Origin: a bacterium
GTDB lineage: Bacteria > Patescibacteriota > Minisyncoccia > Minisyncoccales > CG1-02-41-26
NCBI GenBank assembly: GCA_030648255.1
Contig: JAUSHZ010000012.1
Coordinates: 1 to 60,697, forward strand
Reading direction: 5' to 3'
DNA length: 60,697 bases
The notes beneath the pieces are model-generated. The model worked only from the letters and a program-made list of their open reading frames with translations. It did no database searches and was not told the DNA's origin. Every line of letters begins with the position of its first letter. Position 1 is the stretch's first letter. Positions 44,609 to 45,898 of this stretch are shown in pieces. The translations under genes were made by a program, and so were the position numbers.

Positions 44609-45898
44609 ATGAAAATTCTATCTCTTAAAGCTCGAGAAATTTTAGATAGCCGTGGCGTGCCAACGGTGGAAGCGATTTTAGAAACTGATGGCGGGTTGTT
44701 TAAGGCGTCTGTTCCGTCGGGCACTTCAACGGGCAAATATGAGGCGTTTGAACTGCGAGACAACGACGAGCGGTTTTTTGGCAAAGGCGTTTTAAAAGCA
44801 GTGAAAAATATTGAGAAAAAAATAGCGGAAGCTATTTTAAATAAAGATTTTTCCAGCCAAAAAGATCTGGACGATTTTTTAATAAAATTAGATGCTACAG
44901 AAAATAAGTCGCATTTAGGGGCAAACGCGATTTTAGCTGTTTCAATGGCGGGTTGTCGGGCTTTTGCCTGCGAAAAAAACCAGGAGCTTTTTGAGTTTAT
45001 AGCTGTTGAAGCTCGGTTTTTAGGGGGCCCAAAACCGAGCTTCAACAGCCCCAACAGTCCCGAAATTTGGCTTCCAACTCCGTGCTTTAATATAATAGAA
45101 GGAGGAAAGCACGCAGGCAATAACCTTGAAGTGCAAGAATTTATGGCTGTGCCATTTTTGGAAAGTTTTGCTGAAAACCTGCGATCCGGGGCTGAAGTTT
45201 ATTACCATTTAAAGTTGCTTTTAATAAAAAATTTTGGCGAAACTGCCATGAACACAGGCTATGAGTCAGGATTTGCTCCAGCTTTCAAAAAAACCGAAAC
45301 AGCTTTTGAATTTTTGTTAAAAGCTATCCAAAAAGCGGGCTATGAAGGAAAATTCAAAATTGGTTTGGACATAGCATCAAGCGAGCTTTTATACAAGGAA
45401 AAATATAGAATTAATGCTAAGTTTTTTTCTCCAAAAAAACTTGCTGATTATTATTTGAAACTTTACCACAATTACCCAATAGCTTTTATTGAAGATGGTT
45501 TTGGTCAGGATGATTTAACGGGCTGGCGGGGATTAGAATCAGGAATCAAGAATCAGGAATTAGGAATTATTGTAGTGGGGGATGATTTAACAGCTACTAA
45601 TCCAGAAAGAATAAAAATGGCGCAAGAGAAAAATTTATGCAATGCTGTTATTATAAAACTTAACCAAATTGGGTCAGTAACAGAAGCAATCAATGCGGCT
45701 AACTTGGCAAAAAGTTTTAACTGGAAAGTTATTGTATCGCACAGAAGCGGTGAAACAAACGACGACTTTATTGCTGATTTTGCAGTTGGCATTGGAGCTG
45801 ATTTTATTAAAACAGGCGCACCAGCTGGTGGAGAAAGAGTGGCAAAATATAACCGTTTACTAGAAATTGAAAAAGAGCTGTTGAAGCTCGGTTTTTAG
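44609..45898 (+). CDS. eno: Enolase
   Basis: The N-terminus reads [16 protein letters not shown]. Residues [27 protein letters not shown] and SHRSGET are also present. Confidence 0.9.
   Translation: [429 protein letters not shown]
45001..45050. repeat. Family-A long palindrome in frame inside enolase
   Basis: The sequence agctgttgaagctcggtttttagggggcccaaaaccgagcttcaacagcc is read as [16 protein letters not shown]. It is identical to the copy at 49031-49079. Confidence 0.9.

Follow-up and report, generated by a model that had tools for sequence, protein, structure and literature searches.

A stem-loop of a dispersed repeat family lies in frame in the interdomain linker of an enolase gene from a Patescibacteriota bacterium

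Introduction

How does a palindromic stem-loop come to lie within the coding sequence of an enolase, and what becomes of the protein that carries it? The question is raised by positions 45002–45049 of a 60,697-nt stretch of bacterial DNA (contig JAUSHZ010000012.1 of assembly GCA_030648255.1; Patescibacteriota, Minisyncoccales), which is referred to here, over its whole length, as the window. An earlier note on this DNA had described a perfect palindrome of 49–50 nt translated inside the enolase and adding about 16 codons to a loop, and had likened it to the palindromic elements that are read in frame in Rickettsia.

We consider it likely that the stem-loop is a mobile palindrome of the repetitive extragenic palindromic (REP) or REPIN type, probably moved by a gene resembling those of the REP-associated tyrosine transposases (RAYTs) and tolerated in frame in the linker between the two enolase domains. 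The evidence comes from a dispersed repeat family with an identical intergenic copy, from the lack of the element in the nearest relatives, from the predicted structure of the enolase and from the layout of repeats at a transposase gene.

The stem-loop and its host protein

The gene and the element are listed below; here and in the later lists, the strand is given where one was assigned.

44609–45898, plus strand: enolase gene, 429 residues, with both Pfam domains and the catalytic motifs intact.
45002–45049, plus strand: the reported element, a 48-nt stem-loop in frame in the enolase gene, corresponding to residues 132–147.

The arms of the stem-loop (45002–45020 and 45031–45049) are 19 nt each and 100% complementary, and are separated by a 10-nt loop, TAGGGGGCCC (45021–45030), so that the element comprises 48 nt or 16 codons (GCT GTT GAA GCT CGG TTT TTA GGG GGC CCA AAA CCG AGC TTC AAC AGC). 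The palindrome of the earlier note is real and its arms are perfect, but it measures 48 nt, and because the centre does not pair with itself, the element is a stem-loop (with a perfect 19-bp stem) and not a perfect palindrome. Its position in the reading frame of the enolase was borne out, since the open reading frame (ORF) 44609–45898 is intact and includes the element. The figure of about 16 additional codons equals the length of the element, but the net excess is 13 residues, both relative to human enolase and relative to the nearest relative. Only the frame beginning GCT GTT GAA is open in this loop variant: the frame CTG TTG AAG CTC GGT TTT TAG meets a stop in the loop if this is of the TTTTTAG type, and the frame TGT TGA ends immediately. 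As RNA, the element folds at −33.8 kcal/mol (z = −6.3 relative to shuffled sequences, none of 200 shuffles being equal). At its right junction (45041–45058) there is an imperfect 9-nt tandem, AACAGCCCC–AACAGTCCC, which encodes NSP NSP. A search of the window with Rfam at gathering thresholds gave RNase P RNA and three tRNAs only, with no match at the element.

The Pfam domains of the enolase lie on either side of the insert, Enolase_N covering residues 3–131 (E = 1e-47) and Enolase_C residues 154–424 (E = 3e-92), and the catalytic motifs SGxSTG, QEFM, GxExGFAP, DxAxSE, EDxF, GDDL, KxNQIG, SHRSGET and IKTGAP align to those of solved enolases. An AlphaFold model built on a 119-sequence alignment has a pLDDT of 92.3 and a pTM of 0.93, with only residues 142–151 below 50, and superimposes on solved enolases with a TM score of 0.92 and an r.m.s.d. 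of 1.4–1.5 Å. In this model, helix 127–137 extends into the AVEAR residues of the insert and the first barrel strand spans residues 157–164. The alignment and structural model that the earlier note had called for show the insert as an unstructured addition to the interdomain linker, with the remaining enolase fold preserved.

The best solved matches of the window enolase are eukaryotic (human, trypanosome and yeast; 44–50% identity; 2xsx, E = 3e-117), ahead of the bacterial ones.

A dispersed repeat family

The enolase stem-loop is one member of a family. It is identical in 48 of 48 positions to an intergenic sequence at 49032–49079, and the 16-nt core of its arm has 19 matches in the window at no more than two mismatches, compared with an expectation of 0.10. 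An nhmmer census of the 60.7 kb with a profile made from the copies found eight long and about seven short or partial copies, or about 16 in all when a doublet is included. The short form, of about 24 nt, has the same termini as the long one (yTGTTGAA...TTCAACAr) but not its middle. Judging by their loop sequences, the copies lie in both orientations, and the repeats end in GCTGTTGAA, ACTGTTGAA or GTTGTTGAA. The members other than the enolase copy and those at the transposase gene (listed further below) are as follows.

2660–2688: short copy, immediately past the stop of ORF 1352–2659.
2702–2754: imperfect intergenic long copy.
16688–16744: intergenic long copy, diverged (GAAACTCGGTTTC variant), with tRNA-Gln on one side and a giant ORF on the other.
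19088–19140, plus strand: long copy, in frame in the giant, 3226-residue ORF 16822–26502, read as AVEARFWEPLKTELQQL.
41544–41595: intergenic long copy immediately past the ftsZ stop.
41610–41634: short copy, GTTGTTGAACCCGAGCTTCAACAAC, adjoining the long copy at 41544.
43519–43564: intergenic, perfect 46-nt palindrome in which two short hairpins, GTTGAAGTTTGACTTCAAC and GTTGAAGTCAAACTTCAAC, stand in inverted orientation, a REPIN-like doublet.
44547–44596: long copy with the opposite loop orientation, supplying the last codons and TGA stop (...QKGC) of a thioredoxin-reductase-like gene and ending 12 nt before the enolase ATG.
45877–45924, plus strand: long copy read in the second frame, giving the enolase the tail LLKLGF and a TAG stop (45896–45898).
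45933–45952: partial short copy, GAAGCTCGGTTTCAACAGC, just past the enolase stop.
49032–49079: intergenic long copy upstream of the GAPDH gene.
Near 49080: fragment of a short copy, a profile match.

The enolase gene thus has three copies of the family about it, one before its start, one in the linker and one at its C-terminal end and stop; in relatives, the enolase ends in ...EIEKELY or ...EIEKELNDL. The start of the thioredoxin-reductase-like gene (trxB) given by the ORF finder, a TTG at 43518, is probably spurious; relatives begin M(L)YDLIIIGGG, which puts the real start at ATG 43578 and leaves the palindrome at 43519–43564 intergenic.

The window is about 91% coding, yet only three of the approximately 16 copies are internal to genes (the enolase gene, the 3226-residue ORF and the transposase gene), a distribution with a binomial probability (no more than three of 16 at p = 0.91) of about 1e-11 by our own arithmetic. 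All three internal copies are in an open frame and keep the frame downstream of them. Three further copies lie on stop codons, the TGA or TAG of the element itself terminating the gene, and about ten are intergenic, mostly within a few nucleotides of a stop codon. Such a distribution is expected if insertions are widespread and only the harmless ones persist. Target-site duplications are not visible at any of the family's copies, which fits single-strand transposition of the IS200/IS605 type.

Relatives and age of the insertion

The closest enolases are those of Candidatus Pacebacteria/Paceibacterota, within the Candidate Phyla Radiation (CPR). At three syntenic trxB–eno–gpm loci (L001, L002 and L004), the enolases are 78–80% identical to that of the window, and the element was not found in any of these three genes. 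The linker, taken from I131 to L155, has 23 residues in the window and 10, 11 and 21 in L001, L002 and L004, respectively (P0005, 10; P0004, 11), the 21 residues of L004 containing imperfect repeats only; among 119 homologues its length ranges from 9 to 52 residues, with a mode of 12. With a dispersed family, an identical intergenic copy and nearest syntenic relatives that lack the element, the suggestion of an in-frame palindromic insertion comparable to those of Rickettsia stands.

In L004 (1031–1068), a variant of the family sequence, GCTGTTGAAACTCGGTGTC–GACACCGAGTTTCAACAGC, lies at the junction of ftsZ and the NTP-transferase gene, the same place as the window copy at 41544–41595. The family therefore predates the split of the two genomes, whereas the enolase copy does not. 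The latter is identical to an intergenic copy while its host protein is only 78–80% identical to its nearest relatives, and is accordingly young. When GTDB species representatives and metagenome contigs were scanned with the exact 19-nt arm, the matches returned were all single and unpaired and lay in unrelated contigs, mostly of high GC content; they were taken as chance.

A candidate transposase and its repeats

A gene in the window, 8 kb from the enolase element, encodes a possible mobilizing enzyme, and the short form of the repeat occurs on both sides of it and within it.

53009–53761, plus strand: RAYT-like Y1/HUH transposase gene, 250 residues, the candidate mobilizer.
52973–52997: short repeat, GTTGTTGAACCCGAGCTTCAACAGC, at the 5′ flank of the transposase gene.
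53192–53215, plus strand: short repeat inside the transposase gene, in frame and read as TVEPELQQ, in the single hypervariable loop of the protein family.
53767–53791: short repeat at the 3′ flank, the reverse complement of the 5′ copy except for the outermost base.

The protein matches the Pfam family Y1_Tnp (IS200-like) with 33.8 bits (cut-off 23) and contains the HUH motif as PNHFHLL and the tyrosine motif as YLSAYIQVKN. A sequence search of the PDB gave no match; only a fold search recovered the RAYT/IS200 family. Among solved structures, the one closest to the model (pLDDT 87) in fold is 4er8, in which the REP-associated tyrosine transposase of E. coli is bound to a REP hairpin; the TnpA proteins of ISDra2 and IS608 come next. 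There is one copy of the gene in the window, and homologues at 55–80% identity are widespread in Paceibacteria (871 hits, nearly all with one contig per cluster).

The homologous gene of L033 (526–1284) is arranged in the same way but with another repeat, GTGGTTGATATCGGATACCGACCAC, which occurs at the 5′ flank, in frame within the gene and at the 3′ flank. In both genomes read at the DNA level, the in-frame hairpin of the transposase gene is therefore the repeat that flanks it. From this layout and the fold match, the family was probably mobilized by the 53009–53761 protein.

The hypervariable loop of the Paceibacteria Y1 family corresponds to residues 53–71 of the window protein and comprises 10–33 residues in 113 homologues. 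Its peptides, such as LLKSDFNRQ, LSVSDTDK, LKPGFNQ and TVEPELQQ, resemble translated hairpins.

Insertion hot spots and palindromes of other families

The linker is the dominant insertion site of CPR enolases: 31 of the 119 have at least six extra residues there, and no more than ten have them at any other site. Homologous loops of equal length without the palindrome would, according to the earlier note, have spoken against an insertion. Some relatives do have linkers as long or longer, but those read at the DNA level (L033, L035, L034 and L032) owe their length to different palindromes or repeats of their own, and the interpretation is not refuted by them. That of L033 is a perfect 44-nt palindrome, AACCGACCCCCGAGGTCGGGAG–CTCCCGACCTCGGGGGTCGGTT, of which a second copy lies at the C-terminus, a third palindrome being found near residue 244; that of L035 is GCCCCGCCAGCTGGCGGGGC; that of L034 consists of two tandem hairpins; and that of L032 contains multiple units, with more copies at the 3′ end of the gene.

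In L035 (3390–3470), the linker palindrome lies between 14-nt direct repeats, AATTTTCAATTTTC, which look like an insertion duplication, unlike the copies in the window. In three genomes, the repeat family found in the enolase linker of that genome recurs at the 3′ end or stop of the gene (the window; L032, 2531–2663 and 3481–3545; L033, 8364–8407 and 9287–9324). This co-occurrence could reflect local hopping or something more specific.

Other genes of the window also contain palindromes in frame. The GAPDH ORF (49109–50074) has at 49817–49876 a 60-nt palindrome of a second family, GAATTTCAAGGCACTCGGTTCCTTGAAAGGGGATTCAAGGAACCGAGTGCCTTGAAATCC, read as EFQGTRFLERGFKEPSALKS; its approximately 20 residues are absent in four relatives, and related copies occur at 40270–40331, in the N-terminal part of FtsZ, and at 50380–50424. 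The last of these lies about 210–220 nt into an ATP-grasp_5 gene, where L032 (6777–6821) has a near-identical 45-nt palindrome and L001 (5819–5861) an unrelated one of 43 nt, so that the site is a second insertion hot spot. FtsZ carries a further in-frame palindrome at 41354–41397; the two lie in its disordered N- and C-terminal parts. The copy at 41354–41397, in the C-terminal linker, belongs to a GC-rich family, CCGACCCCACCCCTC...GAGGAGTGGGGTCGG, which also occurs at 6761–6800, near the start of ORF 6731–7255. Counting this one, further in-frame palindromes of other families were found at 6761–6800, 9843–9868 and 26227–26270, the last in the giant ORF.

The GC-rich palindrome of FtsZ resembles the L033 enolase-linker palindrome, with CCGACCCC/GGGGTCGG in common.

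Proposed origin

We propose that a genome-specific, small mobile palindrome of the REP/REPIN type landed where the enolase gene encodes the linker that joins the N-terminal domain to the TIM barrel. Its survival there may have had three reasons: 16 codons cause no shift of frame, the insertion would be read in the sole stop-free frame of this loop variant (GCT GTT GAA...) and the linker is unstructured and probably tolerant of changes in length. Most likely, the mRNA is translated straight through the element, and the product would be an active enolase in which AVEAR extends the last helix of the N-terminal domain and a floppy loop rich in Gly, Pro and Ser comes after it. The family was probably copied in the form of single-stranded DNA hairpins by the IS200-like Y1/HUH transposase.

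Several observations weigh against this origin. Subtraction of the 48 nt from the enolase gene leaves a linker of seven residues, shorter than in all 119 homologues (minimum nine), so the event was not a clean insertion into a modern-looking linker; a small deletion at the same time, or slippage later on, probably contributed. Neither a second genome with the exact family nor an empty-site allele was found in the genome and metagenome scans, and the insertion boundaries, for which an empty-site allele from a close strain would be the reference, are therefore inferred. The long element and the short repeat that flanks the transposase gene have only the outer ~14 nt in common. At the ends of the family repeats, the head that described REPs typically have, GTAG or CGTC, was not found. 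Lastly, the transposase scores only 14.3 bits with the NCBI equivalog model for RAYTs (NCBIfam NF047646), for which the cut-off is 80.

Comparison with known systems

The event itself is of a kind already known, from intragenic REPs and from the Rickettsia palindromic elements (RPEs). As summarized in two later articles (PMC10969869, PMC3733652), the work of Ogata et al. (2000, 2002) describes RPEs as dispersed palindromes that lie in frame in many unrelated and apparently functional genes, are read in one open frame and were judged compatible with the folds of their hosts. According to the same summaries they measure about 100–150 bp (30–50 residues) and occur in obligate intracellular alphaproteobacteria, and no cognate transposase is known for them. 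The elements of the window resemble RPEs as in-frame palindromes within intact ORFs (those of enolase, GAPDH, FtsZ and others). The enolase element differs in length, at 48 nt and 16 residues compared with the ~100–150 bp of families RPE-1 to RPE-10, in its CPR/Paceibacteria host and in the presence of a Y1 transposase gene with the cognate repeat at either flank.

The REP/REPIN and RAYT systems of E. coli and Pseudomonas (PMC3116915, PMC5581495, PMC3479197) offer a second comparison. As there, the window has short imperfect palindromes in numbers far above chance, and the copies are mostly extragenic and just downstream of ORFs. The Y1/HUH transposase gene sits between inverted copies of the repeat, an arrangement described for RAYTs and REPs (PMC5581495, PMC3733652). 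A REPIN has two inverted repeat units that together form one long hairpin. In the window, 43519–43564 is a true doublet of two short hairpins, whereas the inverted 19-nt arms of the 48-nt element correspond to the short repeat in their outer ~14 nt only. Intragenic REPs have been reported from several proteobacteria and from Opitutus, with in-frame REP dimers encoding 20–30 residues in several species (Di Nocera et al., 2013, PMC3733652; PMC10969869), and the REP superfamilies of Di Nocera are marked by the tetranucleotide GTAG or CGTC, which stands at one end (PMC3733652). Against this background, the window differs in that core genes of metabolism and division contain intragenic copies at an unusually high density, and its transposase differs from RAYTs as a 250-residue member of a divergent, Paceibacteria-specific subfamily with its own repeat in frame within the gene.

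A literature search on palindromic and REP elements in CPR/Patescibacteria found no description of REP-like or protein-coding palindromes, a result that, given incomplete coverage, is weak evidence of novelty. For this phylum we have thus found no published report.

Alternative explanations

The hairpin might have been kept in the enolase gene for a function, such as ribosome pausing between the two domains, a site of mRNA processing or stability, or a moonlighting role of the enolase loop. Independent gains of unrelated palindromes in the same linker (L033, L035, L034 and L032), the standing of this linker as the dominant insertion site among the 119 CPR enolases, the strong RNA fold of the element and the recurrence of one family in the linker and at the gene 3′ end in the window, L032 and L033 would all be accounted for in this way. 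The linker inserts nevertheless vary in sequence, length and encoded peptide, and the nearest relatives manage without an insert. Moreover, many unrelated genes of the window have palindromes in disordered parts, as simple tolerance predicts, and the identity of the enolase copy to an intergenic one marks it as young. We regard selection for a function as unlikely.

A classical MITE (miniature inverted-repeat transposable element), moved by a DDE transposase encoded elsewhere, would make the Y1 gene a mere neighbour that was itself hit by insertions. ERIC, BOX, Correia and Nezha-type MITEs are known to create in-frame fusions (reviewed in PMC10969869), and the family resembles MITEs as small, non-autonomous repeats with inverted termini (here the 19-nt terminal inverted repeats) that can be read through in host ORFs. 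Its short form, which retains the termini without the middle, is reminiscent of MITE deletion derivatives, and its repeats occur in other genes as well. MITEs, however, usually generate target-site duplications and derive from DDE insertion sequences, and neither feature was seen for the window element: no copy of the family has a target-site duplication, and no DDE transposase was present among the window proteins scanned, although most ORFs were not scanned. Lengths of 48 and 24 nt are also below the 70–300 bp of bacterial MITEs (PMC3733652). In each of two genomes whose repeats differ, the Y1 gene is bordered by, and contains, the repeat of its own genome. A MITE origin is on these grounds quite improbable.

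It is very improbable that the repeats do not transpose at all and are instead protein-binding or DNA-uptake-type signals amplified by selection or biased uptake. Most copies lie just past stop codons, many of them as inverted pairs, as such signals might, and CPR bacteria depend on DNA uptake. Amplification of a recognition signal is hard to reconcile with the identity of entire 48-nt units, loops included, at distant sites, with the link between the family and the Y1 transposase gene, or with the possession by each genome of its own sequence family.

Hardly any credence can be given to a loss of the segment from the mature protein by translational bypassing or RNA removal: hairpin-forming inserts of about 50 nt in coding sequence are bypassed in T4 gene 60 and in the mitochondrial 'byp' system of Magnusiomyces, where the byps derive from mobile, GC-rich palindromes, and the enolase hairpin is very stable, but those elements break the frame and are skipped by the ribosome, whereas the enolase insert, like the two other intragenic copies, is open and preserves the frame, a constraint that a skipped segment would not be under and that makes bypassing unnecessary, and it has no matched take-off and landing codons beside it, no Rfam match and far too few nucleotides for an intein or a group I/II intron.

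Other candidates were rejected outright. An assembly artefact is ruled out by the reading frame, the domain order and the synteny with four relatives, all of which continue across both sides of the element, and an origin in situ by slippage by the presence of an identical 48-nt unit elsewhere in the window. A general function as a terminator was dropped: there is no T-run after the enolase copy, which was not flagged as a terminator, and few of the short copies are terminator-like. An intein or a group I/II intron was set aside, since the insert has only 16 codons and the site gave no Rfam match.

Wider implications

If the REP-like origin is correct, the window would add to Rickettsia a second, independent lineage whose essential enzymes contain translated selfish DNA of a palindromic kind, and this in hosts whose genomes are among the smallest and most gene-dense known. 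Differences in linker length among CPR enolases and other proteins can then be footprints of mobile elements and not adaptations, which is of relevance to alignments, phylogenies and structure prediction. The stop codons of the element rewrite the C-termini of genes, a matter for annotation. Two genomes, each with a repeat of its own, have the candidate transposase beside cognate copies, and this pairing would provide a simple system in which to follow the spread of REP-type sequences and their co-evolution with the enzyme.

The wider pattern in Paceibacteria and the repeat within the transposase gene are the more interesting leads. They invite a proposal that we put forward tentatively and with some doubt: Paceibacteria may carry a distinct RAYT-like lineage that has its own cognate hairpin in frame in the hypervariable loop and at both flanks, and whose repeats, along with other palindromes, have repeatedly colonized the same permissive spots in core proteins, such as the enolase linker, the ATP-grasp site, GAPDH and the tails of FtsZ. 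Were this so, palindromes that encode protein would generally act to drive the evolution of loops in these minimal genomes, and the repeat in the transposase gene might serve the enzyme in self-recognition or autoregulation.

Neighbouring features of the window

Directly downstream of the two repeat copies at 2660–2688 and 2702–2754, ORF 2778–4445 encodes a protein with TrwB/TraG-type coupling-protein and HerA-like domains and a treble-clef zinc finger. The giant ORF 16822–26502 (3226 residues) holds two in-frame palindromes, at 19088–19140 and 26227–26270. The RNase P RNA (7237–7582, minus strand; 144.6 bits with Rfam) overlaps the end of the plus-strand ORF 6731–7255, which is perhaps not a genuine gene. 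Almost all larger ORFs of the window (at least 100 residues) are on the plus strand, and the GC skew is positive throughout.

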